Virus record (IMG/VR): IMGVR_UViG_2516143027_000009
Reading direction: 5' to 3' (one strand)
DNA length: 43,233 nucleotides
Source of the DNA: a virus
Lineage: Duplodnaviria > Heunggongvirae > Uroviricota > Caudoviricetes
A model generated the notes under the pieces. It was not told the DNA's origin and ran no database searches. It saw only the letters and a program-made list of their open reading frames with translations. Positions 6,611-41,298 of this stretch are shown piece after piece. The first letter of the stretch is position 1; each line of letters begins with the position of its first letter. Both the position numbers and the translations under genes were made by a program.

Positions 6611-6625
6611 TTACCTTTCAGGTAA
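6611..6625. promoter_or_regulatory. Operator-like palindrome TTACC-TTTCA-GGTAA (copy 1)
   Basis: Same 5-5-5 palindrome as in the OR/OL regions; lies between the tailspike start and the 6702 gene. Confidence 0.5.
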
Positions 6626-6701: not shown

Positions 6702-6959
6702 ATGCAGCAGTATCACTATCCACTGGAAGACGGATTTACCGAAAGGATTCACACGCCGGGAGGCGTCAGGTCACTGGTGGAGGGATCGCACTTGATGAAA
6801 TTACTCCGGGATCTCGATAAGGATGGATTTAATGTCGATGGCCCACTTGCCGAACTGACTGCACTGATTAACTACGTCACCAGCTCACAGATGTCTATGC
6901 AGGATCTGCAAACACATCTCGACTATTGTGCCGAACAATTACGAAAACAAACCCGGTAA
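6702..6959 (+). CDS. Small antirepressor-like protein: standalone copy of the module shared by three antirepressor fusions
   Basis: RBS GGAGAAG then ATG 6702; 85 aa; roughly 40% identity by eye to the C-terminal ~80 aa of the 8108, 9930 and 41299 gene products (shared PL..G...IH.P.GV..L.E.S.LM.LL..L..DG..V.G..AELT....Y......QTH..Y). Confidence 0.6.
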   Translation: MQQYHYPLEDGFTERIHTPGGVRSLVEGSHLMKLLRDLDKDGFNVDGPLAELTALINYVTSSQMSMQDLQTHLDYCAEQLRKQTR

Positions 6960-6981: not shown

Positions 6982-7710
6982 CTATCGTTTCGCTTTGTGC
7001 TCGTCCCAGCACGTTTTGCACCATGCCATTAAGCCGTCCGCATTTTGATTATTAGGGTAAAAGCTGGTCCGTTTTCTGCGGACATTACAAATTGGGCACC
7101 ACTTCATATGGCGTGTATTCTTTGGGCCATCGAGACACCTTGCACACCACTTAGTCAATCCATCTGGATTTTTTGACGATTTCCGGAATTTGTCATATGG
7201 AAGGTTTATTCTGCATCGCAAACACTGCTTGCGGCCACTTGAAACTCTGTTAGCTGATTCTTCTTTTGGCGGCGATACAGAAGGTATTCTTGCTGGCTCT
7301 GATACTGCCTGAGGTGCTTTTTTAGATGACTGAGACGATATGTCATCACCAGGGAATCTTCCATGATATGCCGGACGCGTTGACACTCCAGGTGGAAGCT
7401 CAGCTGTAAACGGCTTTGGCTGAATCAGTTGCCTCTCTTTTGCTAACTCCTGCTGTTTATAATATGTCTGGATTACCGCACTATCATAAGCAGGAGGTAC
7501 GGAAATATCAGGCGCGTTACCTCCAGTTTTTTGAAAATGAGTAGATGTGTGTTCTATCACCTGTGTACGACTAATCGTTACCTCCCCATCTTCGGTCTTT
7601 ATCGTTTTGTTCTGATTAACGACCGTACGATCAGAGATCTTAGTCTTGTTCTGGTTGATAACGTAAATAATCACCGCAACCACACCAACAACTATCCAGA
7701 AAACTTCCAT
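6982..7710 (-). CDS. Membrane-anchored protein with Pro-rich linker and tandem CxxC zinc-ribbon repeats
   Basis: N-terminal TM helix; two repeats C-x2-C...DGL..WC-x2-C; operator copy in its promoter region. Confidence 0.5.
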   Translation of the reverse strand: MEVFWIVVGVVAVIIYVINQNKTKISDRTVVNQNKTIKTEDGEVTISRTQVIEHTSTHFQKTGGNAPDISVPPAYDSAVIQTYYKQQELAKERQLIQPKPFTAELPPGVSTRPAYHGRFPGDDISSQSSKKAPQAVSEPARIPSVSPPKEESANRVSSGRKQCLRCRINLPYDKFRKSSKNPDGLTKWCARCLDGPKNTRHMKWCPICNVRRKRTSFYPNNQNADGLMAWCKTCWDEHKAKR

Positions 7711-7730
7711 TGCTTTTCCTCACAATAACA

Positions 7731-7838: not shown

Positions 7839-7929
7839 ATTTACATCGCACTCCTCTTGTGCCATAGTAATCGGGCACTGGCAAAATCCAGTGCCGGGAT
7901 TGGCGTCCCGGGTTACTAAGTGGCGCATA

Positions 7930-7951
7930 CCACGCCAGACGTGGTTTTTTT
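7930..7951 (+). terminator. Intrinsic terminator inside the 5' leader of the BRO-domain antirepressor gene
   Basis: Hairpin CCACG-CCAGA-CGTGG followed by T7; about 150 nt upstream of the 8108 start codon. Confidence 0.45.
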
Positions 7952-8107
7952 ATGCGTTAAGCACAGCTATATCCGAATTATGGTGGGCTGGGCAGGGGTC
8001 CGAAAGGACGCCGGTACCACTTAGGCCGGTACGCCAACCTTGTCCAGTTCACCACCAGTAATTGGCGTTGCGGTGGTGATTAAAATCACTAAGTGGAGAT
8101 AACCACC

Positions 8108-8818
8108 ATGGCTAATGCTCAAACTTCCATCTTCAAATTTGAATCTGTTAACCCTATCCGTTCCATCATTATCGATGGCCAACCATGGTTTGTAGCCCAA
8201 GACGTTTGTAGTGCGCTGCGTATCCAAAACGTCACCCAAGCACTTGAAAAACTGGATGATGATGAAAGGTCTATGTTCAACATAGGGCATGAACATCGTG
8301 CAATTTTTGACAGCCGAGTAAAAGAGATCAACATCATCTCCGAGTCAGGCCTCTACACACTGATCCTCCGCTGCCGCGACGCAGTGACACCAGGCACTAT
8401 CCCCTACCGCTTTCGTAAATGGGTTACAGGTGAGGTTCTTCCTCAGATCCGCCGCACCGGAAGTTACATTAAAAACTCGCTCCCGCAGGAAGAACGCATA
8501 AAGATGGTTGCCGACCAGGTAGCCAACGCCACGGCGTCAGCAGTAATGCAGGCGATGAAGATAGAGAACAAAACCTACAGTGCCCCACTGAAGCCCGGCT
8601 ACCGTAGCCTGATTCATTCGCCGTCTGGTGTTCTCGGCCTGACGGAGAACTCACTGCTGATGAATCTGCTGAACCAGTTACAGGAAGACGGGCACGACGT
8701 ATCGGGCGCGGCGGCGGAACTGACCACCATGTTCTGCTACATCGTCGGTGTGAGCAAATGCCTGCGTGATATCCAGACCCACGCGGAGTACATCAACGAC
8801 AAGGCAGGGTTCTTCTGA
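8108..8818 (+). CDS. Antirepressor-like protein, N-terminal BRO-N domain fused to the shared C-terminal module
   Basis: N-terminal region typical of the BRO-N family (IFKFE...IDGQPWFVAQDVCSAL); RBS AAGTGGAG before ATG 8108; C-terminal 80 aa near-identical to the 9930 and 41299 products. Confidence 0.7.
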   Translation: MANAQTSIFKFESVNPIRSIIIDGQPWFVAQDVCSALRIQNVTQALEKLDDDERSMFNIGHEHRAIFDSRVKEINIISESGLYTLILRCRDAVTPGTIPYRFRKWVTGEVLPQIRRTGSYIKNSLPQEERIKMVADQVANATASAVMQAMKIENKTYSAPLKPGYRSLIHSPSGVLGLTENSLLMNLLNQLQEDGHDVSGAAAELTTMFCYIVGVSKCLRDIQTHAEYINDKAGFF

Positions 8819-8840
8819 CGGCGGCGGCACAGGGACGTGC
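8576..8840 (+). repeat. Copy A of a ~260-bp near-identical repeat (3' end of BRO gene plus about 20 bp after the stop)
   Basis: Near-identical to 41706..41970 (direct) and 9906..10160 (inverted); estimated over 95% identity by eye. Confidence 0.8.
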
Positions 8841-8889
8841 CTTTAAATAATTCTGTACAGATTGCAGACTGGGAGTGAATAGCGTACTA

Positions 8890-8904
8890 TTACCTCAAGG
8901 GTAA
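8890..8904. promoter_or_regulatory. Operator-like palindrome TTACC-TCAAG-GGTAA (copy 4)
   Basis: Sequence match; about 60 bp upstream of the 8964 gene. Confidence 0.5.
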
Positions 8905-8963
8905 GAAAGCATTTTTAATCTTCCCTTCAAAACGCGTCCTGTAGCCAAACATGGGAGGACGAA

Positions 8964-9596
8964 ATGAGAACAAATACAACAAGAAAAGCGATGCCATACA
9001 TTATCCCAGAAGCAGATTTCGATAGAAAACTGAACATGTCTGAGAAGAACACTAGTCACACCGAAAGCTACTTAGCGAAAGGTGTGGTTGATTTCGTTCT
9101 TCCGGGATTCACAACACCTTATGGTTATCGCCTTGTAAAATCTTGTAATGGCGATCATTACAGAATGATTACTACCAGCGATACTCCAGAAACGGTGTAT
9201 GCGGTTAAGTTAATCTTTCGGGAAGATATCGTCGAAGCCAAAAGAACATGTACGCAGATCATGGTATGGCGTACGCCTAATGTTATTCATGACCGTGCTG
9301 TTCATGGTTTGCCTCAGATTTTTTTTCAGTTCTTCCTAGAGCAATATGCGATCGTTGTATCTGATGAGCAACAAACAATCGATGGGAGAAGATTCTGGGA
9401 AAGAATGATTTCTTGGGCTATAAACACCCCGGGATATAATGTATACGTTTCAGATGGCTCTGAAGAAGATAGACCTCTTAGCTTCATGACATCATGGGAT
9501 GATTTCTATAGCCAGTGGGCTGATTTCTGTTGGGGCAGTGATAAAGATGTGCATACCCACAGACTACTGGTTATAAGCAAAGATAAACTGCATTAA
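8964..9596 (+). CDS. Hypothetical protein (accessory gene, no recognisable motif)
   Basis: Strong RBS GGGAGGA before ATG; 210 aa; lower GC than neighbours; own terminator; lies between the inverted repeat copies A and B. Confidence 0.6.
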   Translation: MRTNTTRKAMPYIIPEADFDRKLNMSEKNTSHTESYLAKGVVDFVLPGFTTPYGYRLVKSCNGDHYRMITTSDTPETVYAVKLIFREDIVEAKRTCTQIMVWRTPNVIHDRAVHGLPQIFFQFFLEQYAIVVSDEQQTIDGRRFWERMISWAINTPGYNVYVSDGSEEDRPLSFMTSWDDFYSQWADFCWGSDKDVHTHRLLVISKDKLH

Positions 9597-9600
9597 TAGA

Positions 9601-9622
9601 AGCCCGCAGCGCGGGCTTTTTT
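9601..9622 (+). terminator. Rho-independent terminator after the 8964..9596 gene
   Basis: Hairpin AGCCCGC-AGC-GCGGGCT followed by T6. Confidence 0.65.
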
Positions 9623-9694
9623 GTGGACGAAACAAAAGTCAGTGCTACACTCATTGACGCCACATTGAGGTGGCTTATAGATGGAAATTTCACA

Positions 9695-9856
9695 ATGAAA
9701 AAAGCATTTGCTGCACTGTTCGTTTTGTTGTCTCTGGTAGCTTCAACTCAGGCCTTTGCCGGTCGTTGTCAGCACGACAGCGATACTGCCGCTGACGGCT
9801 CCCGCTGCGGTGGGCGTTCTGCGGATTCCCGCCCGGGTGGCGGTGGCATTCGTTAA
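9695..9856 (+). CDS. Small secreted Cys/Gly-rich peptide (hypothetical)
   Basis: 53 aa from Met MKKAFAALFVLLSLVASTQAFA with a signal peptide; promoter-like TTGACG..TATAGA upstream; weak RBS. Confidence 0.35.
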   Translation: MKKAFAALFVLLSLVASTQAFAGRCQHDSDTAADGSRCGGRSADSRPGGGGIR

Positions 9857-9879
9857 AAACAAGGCCGCGAAAGCGGCCT
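9855..9879 (-). terminator. Rho-independent terminator of the ant transcript
   Basis: On the minus strand: hairpin AGGCCGC-TTTC-GCGGCCT followed by TGTTTTT. Confidence 0.55.
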
Positions 9880-9905
9880 GTGACATGTCACGCTAGTTTC
9901 GTTTT

Positions 9906-10160
9906 GCACGTCCCTGTGCCGCCGTTCTGTCAGAAGAACCCTGCCTTGTCGTTGATGTATTCCGCGTGCGTCTGGATATCACGCAGGCATTTGCTCACAC
10001 CAACGATGTAGCAGAACATGGTGGTCAGCTCCGCCGCCGCGCCCGATACATCGTGCCCGTCTTCCTGTAACTGGTTCAGCAGATTCATCAGCAGTGAGTT
10101 CTCCGTCAGGCCGAGAACACCCGACGGCGAATGAATCAGACTGCGGTAGCCTGGCTTCAA
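9906..10160 (-). repeat. Copy B (inverted) of the ~260-bp repeat
   Basis: Reverse complement matches copies A and C, including the post-stop segment. Confidence 0.8.
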
Positions 10161-10868
10161 TGGATAACCATAACATTTTGTCTGTGTTTTAATTGCCTCA
10201 CGAAGCGCATCTAACATCTTGACTGCCACTTCATCATTCTCTGATGCAGATCCAGCAGGGAGATACTCCCCTTCAAGCGGAACCCGAGCAACAAGAGACA
10301 ACGCTTCGGCAAATTGATCTTCACCAATTTCTTTGTACGAACAGCCAAAATGAGATTTCAGTGACGACCACATGGTGATCATCGCCTTAGCCTGTTTTTC
10401 TTTTGGCAGAGACTGACCGCGACTCATGACGAGTTGTTTAATGGCTTCCTGCTGTTCAGTTGTTATTTTACCCGGCAACGCCTTTTTAGCTTTGCGTGGG
10501 TTAACCACATGGCCTTTAGTCCAGTACTCGTAGAGCACATCGTCACACTCTTCCTGATACTGGATTACCTTGTCGCGGATTTCAGGGCGGACTTTGTTAG
10601 GGCTGATGCTGTTCAACCAAGCTGCCAATTTTCGTAAAGCCATACAAATCATGGCTTGCACCCCACCGGCAGAAGGTATGGTGATTTCCACCATACCCTT
10701 CGAGAAGCGTTGAGAAATCTTCTTATGTTGAGATTTCCAGTCTAGCCCCATTCCCTCAACGATAGGTTTCATTGGGGTATACGGTTCGCCGTTGTGATTG
10801 ACAACATAAAGCTCTGCGCCGTGGAATGGCACGTTGATAGTAGATACTGCTGTTGCTATACTCGTCAT
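9930..10868 (-). CDS. ant: Antirepressor Ant-like protein (P22 Ant N-terminal-like domain plus shared C-terminal module)
   Basis: N-terminal FHGAELYVVNHNGEPYTPMKPIVEGMGLDWKSQ resembles the P22 antirepressor N-domain (from memory); located downstream of an Arc-like gene with a divergent Mnt-like gene, as in P22 immI. Confidence 0.65.
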   Translation of the reverse strand: MTSIATAVSTINVPFHGAELYVVNHNGEPYTPMKPIVEGMGLDWKSQHKKISQRFSKGMVEITIPSAGGVQAMICMALRKLAAWLNSISPNKVRPEIRDKVIQYQEECDDVLYEYWTKGHVVNPRKAKKALPGKITTEQQEAIKQLVMSRGQSLPKEKQAKAMITMWSSLKSHFGCSYKEIGEDQFAEALSLVARVPLEGEYLPAGSASENDEVAVKMLDALREAIKTQTKCYGYPLKPGYRSLIHSPSGVLGLTENSLLMNLLNQLQEDGHDVSGAAAELTTMFCYIVGVSKCLRDIQTHAEYINDKAGFF

Positions 10869-10942
10869 GTCGTTAATTCCTATACGTAGTTTTACGATAC
10901 TGAAGCCCTGACGGTCTGGCCACCGTGGGGCTTCGCTGTTTT
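10869..10942 (+). ncRNA. Candidate sar-like antisense RNA (antisense to the ant RBS and arc 3' end)
   Basis: Plus-strand promoter TTGATA-17 bp-TATACT at 10834..10862 inside the ant 5' end; hairpin 10902..10934 followed by a T-rich tract gives a predicted transcript of about 70 nt. Confidence 0.4.
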
Positions 10943-11108: not shown

Positions 11109-11228
11109 TTCATATCTCCTTAGCCCCACCGTGGGGCAAAATAATTGTCACACCGTGCGTCATTGATGTCAAGCACACGGTGAGGCATACTTCAATCATT
11201 GCAAGTAACTCAATATTTGGTGAAGAAC

Positions 11229-11660
11229 ATGAGCAGAGAAGATCCACAACTAAGGATCAGACTTCCCGTCGAAGTAAAAGAAAAAATAGAAATTTCTGCA
11301 AAAGCCAATAAGCGATCAATGAACGCTGAAATAGTACAACGTCTTGACACCAGCTTTCTGAAAGATATTCATGAAGATGACGTAATTTCTGCTTATGAAG
11401 CAAAAATCATTGCAAACAATGCACGACATGAAATATCAAATATTATTTTCAAAAGAACCTTTAATGAAATTAATAAGAAAATAACACTTGGACATACAAG
11501 TTTTTATATAAACCTTAATGACCTTGAACTGGAATCACTTGCAGATAATGATTACCAGATCATCTTTGAAAAAACATTTAATAGGCTCAATGAACTAGGT
11601 TACATCATCTGTGAAAACTCATGGGATGCAGATGGTTTTGGAATTGAAATACCTGAATAG
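11229..11660 (+). CDS. mnt: Mnt-like ribbon-helix-helix repressor with a C-terminal extension
   Basis: N-terminus MSREDPQLRIRLPVEVKEKIEISAKANKRSMNAEIVQRL closely parallels P22 Mnt; divergent from arc-ant; AT-rich. Confidence 0.65.
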   Translation: MSREDPQLRIRLPVEVKEKIEISAKANKRSMNAEIVQRLDTSFLKDIHEDDVISAYEAKIIANNARHEISNIIFKRTFNEINKKITLGHTSFYINLNDLELESLADNDYQIIFEKTFNRLNELGYIICENSWDADGFGIEIPE

Positions 11661-11749
11661 GAAGAACAAAAGGCGTGTACATATTACACGTCTTTAATAC
11701 AATTGAAAAACGCCACATTACTGATGTATGTTACAACAAGGAGCGATAT

Positions 11750-12314
11750 TTTGAAAACCATATCTATATTAAAGGTTGCATTAGGCGTCGCTATTATTTT
11801 GACTCTCTCAATATTGTTTTATTTTTACCACAAACAAACTGCTATTGCTCTTGATAGTCACGCGGCAAACTCATTTTTCTCAGAGTACATAGTGCCGCTA
11901 TCAGGAAGCGGTATAACAAATAAATATACTGACTATGACATCAAATATGGAATTGATGATGGGGAGACTATTGTATTACATGTAATCATTAAAAACCTAA
12001 TGACAGTAAATAAAAATACAGACTTCAACGATAAAAATACAATACATCACAACAACAGCAAAACATTAATTTCTTATAGTAGCAACATCTATACGGATAA
12101 ATACCTAAAATACATATCAGAAGATACAATAAAAGAAACCCGCGAAAAGTTAAAAAACATATATTGTGCATCCGGCAGTTTTCACAAATTATCGCCGCAA
12201 GAGCGTTTATTCTACGAAGCAAGAAAACAACGTAAGTCAATAATATTACATTATTATGCTGATTCAGGGGAGACACTCATATTTAATATTGGGGTTTCCC
12301 CTGAATCATGCTAA
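11750..12314 (+). CDS. Single-pass membrane protein, candidate superinfection-exclusion protein (sieA-like position)
   Basis: AAGGAG RBS 7 nt before a TTG start (alternative starts ATG 11724 or TTG 11703); N-terminal TM helix; very AT-rich; lies between mnt and the ejection-protein genes. Confidence 0.5.
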
Positions 12315-27382: not shown

Positions 27383-27459
27383 GTGGCATTAGCTCAGTTG
27401 GACAGAGCAACCGCCTTCTAAGCGGTTGGTCGCAGGTTCGAATCCTGCATGCCACGCCA
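27383..27459 (+). tRNA. tRNA-Arg (anticodon UCU), phage-encoded
   Basis: Cloverleaf by eye: acceptor GTGGCAT/ATGCCAC, D-arm GCTC-AGTTGGAC-AGAGC, anticodon stem ACCGC/GCGGT with loop CTTCTAA, T-arm GCAGG-TTCGAAT-CCTGC, discriminator G and encoded CCA. Confidence 0.85.
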
Positions 27460-35445: not shown

Positions 35446-36030
35446 ATGAAAAGTATCCAGGACGTCCGCAGGCAAAATCTCAACGACTTGATCGACCGTG
35501 AATTCAATGGTGTTCAGACGCGGATGGCAGAAAAACTTGGAACTCAGGCAAATCTGGTAAACCGCTGGGCTCTTGGCAAGAAGGTTATCGGCGACCAGGT
35601 TGCGCGAAAAATTGAAGCTGCCGCCAATAAACCCCGTAACTGGCTTGATATCGATCGCTCGCTTTCTCAGGAAGGTTTTCAGCCTGTCGGCCCAAGCGAC
35701 ATTGGTCAGCTGGCGGCTCACAACCTGGAACGCTGGATGAGCGAAAGCCGCGACCTTTCAACACAGGGAAAACTTCACCGCGCATCCGGCGTCGCCCAGG
35801 TGACAATCAGCCGCCTGTTAAACAATGAGGTCAGCGTTTCCATTTCCACCCTGGAGAATGTTGCATCCGCATTCGGGCGTCACGGATATGAACTACTGAT
35901 TCACCCGCACGACCCTGCGACTATCAACTATGACCGCTCACGCTACGCATTGTTACCCGAAACCGAGAAAGCAAAGATCGAAAGTTACATTGAATTTGTC
36001 ATCAACCAGAACGAAAAAAGCAAACAATAA
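35446..36030 (+). CDS. Immunity repressor (CI-like), dual HTH, no S24 peptidase domain
   Basis: N-terminal HTH (TQANLVNRWALGKKVIGDQVARKIEAAANKPRNWL) and a second HTH-like segment (ASGVAQVTISRLLNNEVSVSISTLENVASAFG); no Ser/Lys autocleavage motifs; flanked by operator clusters. Confidence 0.65.
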   Translation: MKSIQDVRRQNLNDLIDREFNGVQTRMAEKLGTQANLVNRWALGKKVIGDQVARKIEAAANKPRNWLDIDRSLSQEGFQPVGPSDIGQLAAHNLERWMSESRDLSTQGKLHRASGVAQVTISRLLNNEVSVSISTLENVASAFGRHGYELLIHPHDPATINYDRSRYALLPETEKAKIESYIEFVINQNEKSKQ

Positions 36031-41135: not shown

Positions 41136-41298
41136 GCCTGCAATCTGGCATAGTCACATCCGTACAAAGGTCGGGTGGAGAGGCGTAATACAACACCCGA
41201 AAGGGGAATATGCCCGGAGCTACTGTTTGTGCTCTAGTTGACACCCGATCACCAGCTACTAACTGGTTTTCGTAACTAAAAACAAACAGGAGGTCATC

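Follow-up and report, generated by a model that had tools for sequence, protein, structure and literature searches.

The DNA analysed here, a stretch of 43,233 nucleotides (nt) from IMG/VR record IMGVR_UViG_2516143027_000009 (hereafter the window), is a temperate podophage prophage of Escherichia coli that resembles phiV10, TL-2011b, and epsilon15 and falls within the genus Uetakevirus. Phage TL-2011b matches 81% of the first 25 kb of the window at 97% identity, and prophages of E. coli 07_3636 and several other strains match the region of interest at 99.4% identity. This region lies between two convergent antirepressor (ant) genes and holds two open reading frames (ORFs) on the + strand: ORF A (8964-9596), which encodes a protein of 210 amino acids (aa), and ORF B (9695-9856), which encodes one of 53 aa. 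Part of this cassette occurs in 533 of 5,426 complete genomes, and 93 have the full version with ORF A. The ORFs, ribosome-binding site (RBS), terminator, operator, and repeats that an earlier sequence-only reading had listed were each found where it had put them or close by.

That reading had also proposed an accessory cassette with its own signals. The comparison with related phages bears this out: the stretch 8905-9600 is swapped for unrelated genes among otherwise near-identical phages. In the blastn map against TL-2011b, homology ends at 8904, the last base of an operator (TTACCTCAAGGGTAA, 8890-8904) that is one copy of a genome-wide palindrome, and resumes at 9601, at the foot of a terminator. 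The right edge of the operator is the left breakpoint of the cargo exchange, and the exchangeable segment (8905-9600, + strand) consists of the 5' untranslated region (UTR) and ORF A. When six slots taken from various phages and prophages are aligned, the left side proves conserved: the stop codon of ant, a small hairpin, TTTAAATAAT, a -35-like hexamer TTGCAG, a -10-like hexamer TACTAT, and the operator. Divergence starts directly after GGTAA. In the window, this left linker begins with a weak hairpin, GGCAC-N6-GTGCC, followed by TTTAAATAATT (8826-8852, +; from sequence, RNAfold, and the slot alignment). Next comes a candidate slot promoter (8862-8890, +), read from the sequence and presumed to be active, with the two hexamers 17 nt apart. 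The layout of this promoter is kept before all the alternative cargos, and the operator is present ahead of every one of them.

The conserved right linker starts with an intrinsic terminator (9598-9622, +) that has a 10-bp G+C-rich stem, a 3-nt loop, and a T run. It was identified with RNAfold (free energy of -15.3 kcal/mol) and is not listed by a simple terminator scan. The linker includes ORF B, which is 100% identical in five relatives with different cargos, and meets the terminator of the incoming arc-ant operon (9852-9879, - strand; 7-bp stem and T run), found by the terminator scan (RNAfold free energy of -15.7). Since the terminator at 9598 and ORF B are in the conserved frame, and ORF B is identical across slots, the true cargo is 8905-9600. 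ORF A had been credited with its own terminator. A strong terminator is indeed present, but it is part of the conserved frame of the slot, as is ORF B. The low GC content that had been noted is similarly restricted: it holds for ORF A (40.9%) and the promoter region (40.7%), compared with 48.1% for the window, but not for ORF B (57.4%).

The slot has at least six alternative cargos, ORF A among them. This gene is replaced in TL-2011b, EC.W1-9, phiv142-3, EFF60, and ETEC4077, and the other contents of the slot are a 59-aa protein with a YafO-like toxin, a 108-aa protein with a DUF2335 membrane protein, a DUF4760 protein, a pair of 69 and 251 aa, and two small ORFs. The slot of phiV10 has almost nothing in it, and ORF A is absent. 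Only the stretch from operator to terminator is swapped between phages, probably through recombination in the conserved linkers. This resembles the ‘bsq’ boundary sequences of HK620 and CUS-3, short conserved stretches at module borders where unrelated genes swap, one of which, an annotated ‘boundary sequence,’ adjoins the ant gene of CUS-3. It differs from them in that the left linker is a functional-looking promoter-operator, the right one consists of a terminator and a small gene, and coding repeats of 295 nt bracket the whole unit. A separate observation concerns E. coli MS 196-1 (L017, 1898-4129), which has two slots in tandem, the first with the 108-aa protein and DUF2335, the second with a 108-aa protein and a YafO-like toxin. 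Each ends in an ORF B-like gene of 53-55 aa, which indicates that the frame itself can duplicate.

The operator is key to how the slot may be regulated. It is a 15-bp palindrome, TTACC-N5-GGTAA, with 14 matches in the window when up to one mismatch is allowed, at 6611, 7731, 7824, 8890, 27046, 30191, 30209, 33027, 33089, 34991, 35328, 35376, 36088, and 36150. Only 0.71 matches are expected, and none of 100 shuffles reached 14. The copy that had been noted upstream of ORF A is there, TTACCTCAAGGGTAA at 8890-8904, and it overlaps the -10-like hexamer TACTAT (8885-8890). The same arrangement recurs elsewhere: a TAnnAT motif precedes the operator at 7726, 7819, and 8885, with the -10 hexamer overlapping the first T of the site. 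The operator is also found ahead of the left ant gene, of the Bro-N type. Finally, pairs of operators flank the gene of a 194-aa protein with two helix-turn-helix (HTH) domains (35446-36030). This protein and the repressor of phage ZX5 share 99.5% identity. When the ZX5 repressor was overexpressed, free phage disappeared and the transcripts of lysin and holin fell by more than 99.9% (PMC9782041). From the distribution of the sites, many separate transcription units seem to be under the control of a single repressor.

Because the operator overlaps the -10 hexamer of the slot and clusters around the gene of the lysogeny repressor, ORF A is probably repressed, and thus silent, in the lysogen. The location of the site suggests that the 194-aa tandem-HTH repressor would bind the slot operator. 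ORF A would then stay silent as long as the lysogen is stable and come on, along with the Bro-N antirepressor, upon infection or induction. Such repression argues against a classic gene of benefit to the host and for a phage-side function at the time of derepression.

What could this function be? ORF A starts at the ATG at 8964, and the strong RBS claimed for it was recovered (GGGAGG, 8953-8958, 5 nt ahead of the ATG). The protein is soluble and mildly acidic, with a mass of 24.6 kDa and a pI of 5.97. It matches over its full length phrog_1349, a family of unknown function. The 63 close homologues, of about 210 aa, are spread across Enterobacterales and have 30 invariant positions, which include W102, D134, Q137, T138, G141, R143, F144, W145, and D164. 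The exact sequence of ORF A is on at least 1,000 contigs. Profile searches expanded the family to 918 clusters at 50% identity (E ≤ 1e-3), of which 278 have E ≤ 1e-10, and nearly all members have about 200 aa. We found no match of ORF A by sequence in Pfam, NCBIfam, PADLOC, or PDB (for PDB with the single sequence or the profile, E ≤ 10). None of 97 distant members of the family matches Pfam over the ORF A domain, and the Pfam and PDB searches with these members retrieved only fusion partners: the MqsA N-domain, DUF5397, and, weakly, SRA. A tblastn search of 50,697 phage records gave just four matches, none functionally annotated. No mention turned up in the literature queried by protein accessions and PHROG ids or in the supplements of an accessory-gene screen.

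Structure was more informative. The AlphaFold2 model of ORF A (pLDDT of 80, pTM of 0.77) contains the alpha/beta core of the GNAT fold. Foldseek searches against viral models (BFVD) retrieved phage proteins of about 190-230 aa, some of them annotated as ‘NAT_SF domain,’ with E values down to 4e-11. Against the PDB, the best match was AAC(2')-Ia (E = 7e-3). ORF A is thus predicted to be a divergent GNAT, i.e., an acyl-CoA N-acyltransferase-like protein. The sequence-only reading had seen no recognizable motifs in it, which is accurate for the sequence but not for the predicted structure, and the sensitive profile and structure searches that it had proposed returned no structural or replication protein of phages. 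The canonical CoA loop of GNATs is not recognizable in ORF A. There are two non-canonical candidates for the pyrophosphate-binding loop of motif A (Q/R-x-x-G-x-G/A, which GNATs have between beta4 and alpha3), namely the conserved S-D-x-x-Q-T-x-x-G-x-R-F-W (133-145) and R-A-V-H-G-L-P (110-117). When the family profile was aligned with two single GNAT sequences using hhalign, the probabilities were below 2%. Since these alignments were insignificant and mutually inconsistent, the loop could not be placed.

The closest known systems include GNATs involved in conflicts between phages and hosts, such as Mom of phage Mu, the anti-CRISPR AcrVA5, and toxins of the TacT and AtaT type. We rejected two specific assignments. 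ORF A is not a Mom: we found no homology to it, including at the catalytic residues R111, S124, D149, and R151. There is also no gene for a com-like translational activator upstream of ORF A, and the 59-nt 5' UTR between the operator and ORF A holds no ORF. Nor does ORF A belong to a GNAT toxin-antitoxin system (TacAT, AtaRT, KacAT), since it is monocistronic and has no adjacent gene for an RHH/DUF1778 antitoxin. As a mechanism, ORF A might bind an acyl or nucleotide cofactor and modify or sequester, for the phage, a target from the host or from a rival element. Two relatives, one fused to an SRA domain and one in a nucleotide-metabolism cluster, provide hints of an action on DNA or nucleotides. 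A bolder view is that the family forms a new branch of the GNAT fold, activated by the phage at derepression to act against host immunity, maybe with an unusual donor or acceptor, as in the glycylation of DNA by Mom. We think that this is unlikely.

The relatives of ORF A live in very diverse places. The lambdoid phage LLS has a homologue (84%) after Rz/Rz1, and upstream of it is TACTAT-TTACCCAGAAGGTAA, with the sole exact copy of the operator in the LLS genome (L023, 42053-42067). The LLS homologue has kept the -10 hexamer and the operator, which indicates that the cargo moved together with them. LLS is not among the phages with this 194-aa repressor, and the orphan operator would therefore imply unregulated expression there. 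As an aside, this orphan Uetakevirus operator seems to record the direction in which transfer took place. In siphovirus prophages of Serratia, the homologue is in the tail region, beside a P22_AR_N ant gene and an Arc gene, and a palindrome with one mismatch lies within its TTGAAA-17-TAGTAT promoter. More distant relatives are found in the jumbo phages Atu_ph07 and BCSR5, in a metagenomic contig beside the genes of thymidylate synthase and DHFR, as tandem paralogues, and in fusion with an MqsA-type zinc-ribbon domain. Across the diverse homologues, no neighbor gene is constant: the neighbors are tail genes, ant, arc, or mnt genes, and genes of small secreted proteins. These mixed contexts are compatible with a family that serves either the phage or the host.

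Taken together, we interpret the locus as an accessory-gene slot between convergent ant operons, which in this phage carries a GNAT-like gene that is repressed in the lysogen and has a role on the side of the phage. We regard this joint reading as reasonably probable. Several points weigh against it. The slot promoter matches the consensus weakly (3/6 and 4/6 positions) and was not called by the promoter scan, one operator alone may repress only partly, and we infer the binding of the repressor at TTACC-N5-GGTAA from its location only. In addition, one relative of ORF A is fused to an SRA domain behind the gene of a Phd-type antitoxin, and a distant one lies within a bacterial island with HipA, TacA, and reverse transcriptase genes. 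Other cargos of the slot look like toxins or membrane proteins. These cargos and the HipA and SRA contexts fit a role in defense or as a toxin at least as well as a benefit to the phage.

In the most serious alternative, the one that the sequence-only reading had put forward, the prophage would express ORF A, alone or along with ORF B, to the benefit of the host, as a gene for lysogenic conversion or against phages (for defense, superinfection exclusion, or a toxin-like activity). The build of the locus is that of a moron in the sense of Hendrix and Juhala, of which bor and lom of lambda and gene 15 of HK97 are examples. A predicted promoter and a strong terminator, both of them common parts of the slot, flank a single gene of atypical GC content that is present, absent, or replaced among close phages. 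In other temperate phages, too, homologues are found where morons classically sit: LLS has one after Rz/Rz1, and Serratia and IMG/VR contigs have them inside tail clusters. ORF B is operator-less and labeled a moron by PHROGs. To these points one can add the YafO-like toxin pair and membrane proteins among the other cargos, and the relatives in the HipA/TacA/reverse-transcriptase island and behind the Phd antitoxin gene.

Yet the slot differs from known morons in two respects. Its promoter bears the phage's own operator, which suggests that expression is probably tied to derepression and not to lysogeny, and its promoter, operator, and terminator are a fixed frame that serves many cargos. The first of these speaks against a gene expressed for the host, since the -10 hexamer is overlapped by an operator that clusters around the lysogeny repressor gene and precedes the Bro-N ant. 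Moreover, PADLOC (PADLOC-DB v2) matched neither ORF A nor ORF B at E ≤ 1 and none of nine proteins from the alternative cargos at E ≤ 0.01, no gene of a partner antitoxin adjoins ORF A, and members of the family occur in jumbo phages and in a nucleotide-metabolism cluster like those of lytic phages. A host-benefit gene seems to us rather unlikely.

The genes that flank the slot suggest a second alternative. On the left is the Bro-N ant gene (8093-8818, +; 241 aa; Pfam Bro-N, E = 1e-19; PHROG anti-repressor Ant families). Directly at its 5' side are matches to two RNA families, both above the Rfam gathering score: an isrK-like RNA (7875-7951, +; 67.7 bits) and a C4 antisense RNA (7976-8059, +; 66 bits). 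These point to a control of this ant by RNA of the P1/P7 immI or the Gifsy-1 type. On the right is an ant gene of the P22_AR_N type (9930-10868, -; 312 aa; Pfam P22_AR_N, E = 6e-45). With it are a match to sar RNA (10870-10937, +; 44.8 bits for a gathering score of 43), placed between an arc-like gene and this ant, and a divergent gene for an Arc-domain (Mnt-like) protein of 153 aa (11199-11660). Because sar, the arc-like and Mnt-like genes, and the P22_AR_N ant make up an immI region of the P22 type, two different antirepressor modules converge on the cassette. The right flank is thus like immI of P22 (mnt-arc-sar-ant), with its sar RNA, Arc-like and Mnt-like genes, and P22_AR_N ant. The left one is like immI of P1 and P7 (c4-icd-ant), with its isrK/C4-like RNAs and Bro-N ant. 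In contrast to these phages, the two types of modules converge here, have a C-terminal domain in common, and leave an accessory slot between them. Neither P22 nor P1 has anything that corresponds to ORF A. P22 keeps an accessory exclusion gene, sieA, beside immI.

Given these neighbors, ORF A could be a non-catalytic GNAT-like binder that acts within the antirepressor/repressor circuit, e.g., as a modulator of Ant, of the repressor, or of the targets of these. A gene of the Ant, Arc, or Mnt type is found within 3.5 kb of the ORF A homologue in 28 of 45 IMG/VR loci, and such neighbors are also present in three of the four places in Serratia prophages, including on unrelated siphovirus backbones. 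Two further points in favor are the operator that ORF A and the Bro-N ant share in their promoters and the unrecognizable canonical CoA loop. But the Uetakevirus slot swaps ORF A freely for unrelated genes while the ant genes stay, and in LLS and many IMG/VR loci no ant gene lies near ORF A. Furthermore, the ant modules are themselves accessory and located in the same variable regions, so that adjacency may be positional only. We consider a function in the circuit quite improbable.

The two ant genes also account for the inverted repeats on both sides of the cargo. An initial match of 270 nt at 91% identity plus a perfect 19-mer became, after realignment, a pair of arms of about 295 nt, whose inner 254 nt are about 96% identical. 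These arms correspond to the final ~90 codons, plus 22 nt, of the two convergent ant genes. The left arm (8546-8840, +) is the 3' end of the Bro-N ant, encoding the phrog_450 C-terminal domain, followed by 22 nt that include the perfect 19-mer. The right one (9906-10198, -) is the 3' end of the P22_AR_N ant with the 19-mer. The ~84 C-terminal residues of the two Ant proteins are identical, whereas their N-terminal domains differ. Inverted repeat copies had therefore been rightly noted on the two sides of the cargo, but they are coding 3' ends of ant genes with a shared C-terminal domain, not the ends of a transposon or shufflon type of cassette. We also observed a third, free-standing paralogue of this domain (phrog_450) at 6702-6959 (+), of 85 aa and 37-39% identity, which has its own copy of the operator at 6611 and is kept in all the relatives we examined.

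The inversion of the segment, which had been suggested as a check, does occur in natural genomes. A synthetic query in which 8841-9905 was reversed found three complete E. coli genomes that matched at least 80% of it as a single piece. In SCU-387, the backbone is collinear on both sides and 8585-10163 is inverted at 98.8% identity, which puts ORF A downstream of the P22_AR_N ant and not of the Bro-N ant. In CUVET21-H2 and N21, the segment is inverted relative to the Bro-N ant. Prophages of the DETEC-P793 type have a larger rearranged block. Between genomes, the diagnostic single-nucleotide polymorphisms of the arms form mosaics, the pattern that recombination or gene conversion in the arms would be expected to leave. 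Queries for the junctions at the P22_AR_N ant showed the ORF B side adjoining it in 27 genomes and the ORF A side in one, and none of the ORFs at 6.9-12.3 kb is an invertase or recombinase gene. Given the lack of a nearby recombinase and the skew in orientation, occasional homologous recombination accounts for these cases better than a programmed switch. The long inverted arms would let the whole unit flip now and then by ordinary homologous recombination, and this should be neutral, since neither ant gene is disrupted and the cassette brings its own signals.

A programmed switch of the Mu G, P1 C, or shufflon type, in which inversion of 8841-9905 alters expression, could be invoked for a segment flanked by long inverted repeats and found in both orientations against the same flanking genes, yet it is largely refuted and in our view extremely improbable, since the region has no invertase gene in or beside it, the arms are coding repeats and not short crossover sites, the orientation is skewed 27 to 1, and with its own promoter and terminators and intact ant genes either way nothing is switched. 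We thus rejected an invertase-driven switch. The segment is like the Mu G, P1 C, and e14 P segments in being DNA bounded by inverted repeats and found in both orientations, but it differs from them by having no invertase, by its long coding repeats, by the rarity of the flip (1 of 28), and by the lack of consequences for expression.

ORF B deserves attention as a constant part of the frame. A possible secreted peptide of 53 aa rich in Cys and Gly had been noted here, and this fits what we found: a conserved gene with a signal peptide-like leader and a Cys/Gly-rich tail. It is phrog_14503 (E = 3e-40), annotated elsewhere as ‘transmembrane anchored protein,’ and has 57 protein clusters across Enterobacterales. 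Its sequence, MKKAFAALFVLLSLVASTQAFA|GRC..., has an n-h-c pattern with a putative AFA|G cleavage site, followed by a mature part of 31 aa with two cysteines. Among 17 homologues the leader varies, and the mature portion of 31 aa is nearly invariant, C25 and C38 included, with the pattern C-x-H-D-x-D-x-A-x-D-G-S-R-C-G-G-R-S-x-D-S-R-P-G-G. There is no lipobox in ORF B. The D-x-D...D-G-x-x-C arrangement loosely resembles the Excalibur calcium-binding motif, and no family match was found. A candidate promoter without operator precedes the gene (9654-9681, +; TTGACG, 16 nt, TATAGA, read from the sequence). The consensus scan, which accepts only a T as the sixth base of the -10 hexamer, missed it. 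ORF B would thus be a constitutively expressed and exported mini-protein that belongs to the frame of the slot.

Some other features of the window may be of interest. An ORF at 11703-12314 (+; 203 aa; phrog_8033, of unknown function) lies in the kilobase with the lowest GC content of the window (35%) and has a weak ThsB/TIR-like match in PADLOC (E = 0.006), making it a possible further accessory or defense gene. The ORF at 6982-7710 (-; 242 aa; phrog_6762) has a hydrophobic N-terminal segment and cysteine-rich C-terminal repeats that match the profiles of endonuclease VII, Lar-like, and Stc1 zinc fingers. It is present in 07_3636 and ETEC4077 and absent from SCU-387 and phiV10. The phage also carries a tRNA-Arg(TCT) gene (27383-27459, +). 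Near the right end there is a match to the sRNA-Xcc1 family (41169-41258, +), adjoining an ORF of 416 aa that runs off the window.

The segment is a fairly ordinary case of phage mosaicism and does not overturn current views of it. Accessory slots and morons of this kind are already known, and what is new is the presence in one of them of a divergent GNAT-like family. A second, more modest novelty may be that a whole exchangeable slot is wired to the repressor, with the operator itself as the boundary of recombination. Still, prophages like phiV10 and TL-2011b are frequent among both pathogenic and commensal strains of E. coli, and these now have a defined accessory slot that is probably wired to the repressor. 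The duplicated domain of their convergent ant genes provides a clean natural example of homology arms through which accessory genes are exchanged and, now and then, flipped. Finally, the ORF A family, with over 900 clusters and no entry in Pfam, is a large, unannotated, mostly phage-borne protein family with a predicted GNAT-like fold, and a reasonable candidate for a function in counter-defense or in the modification of the host.

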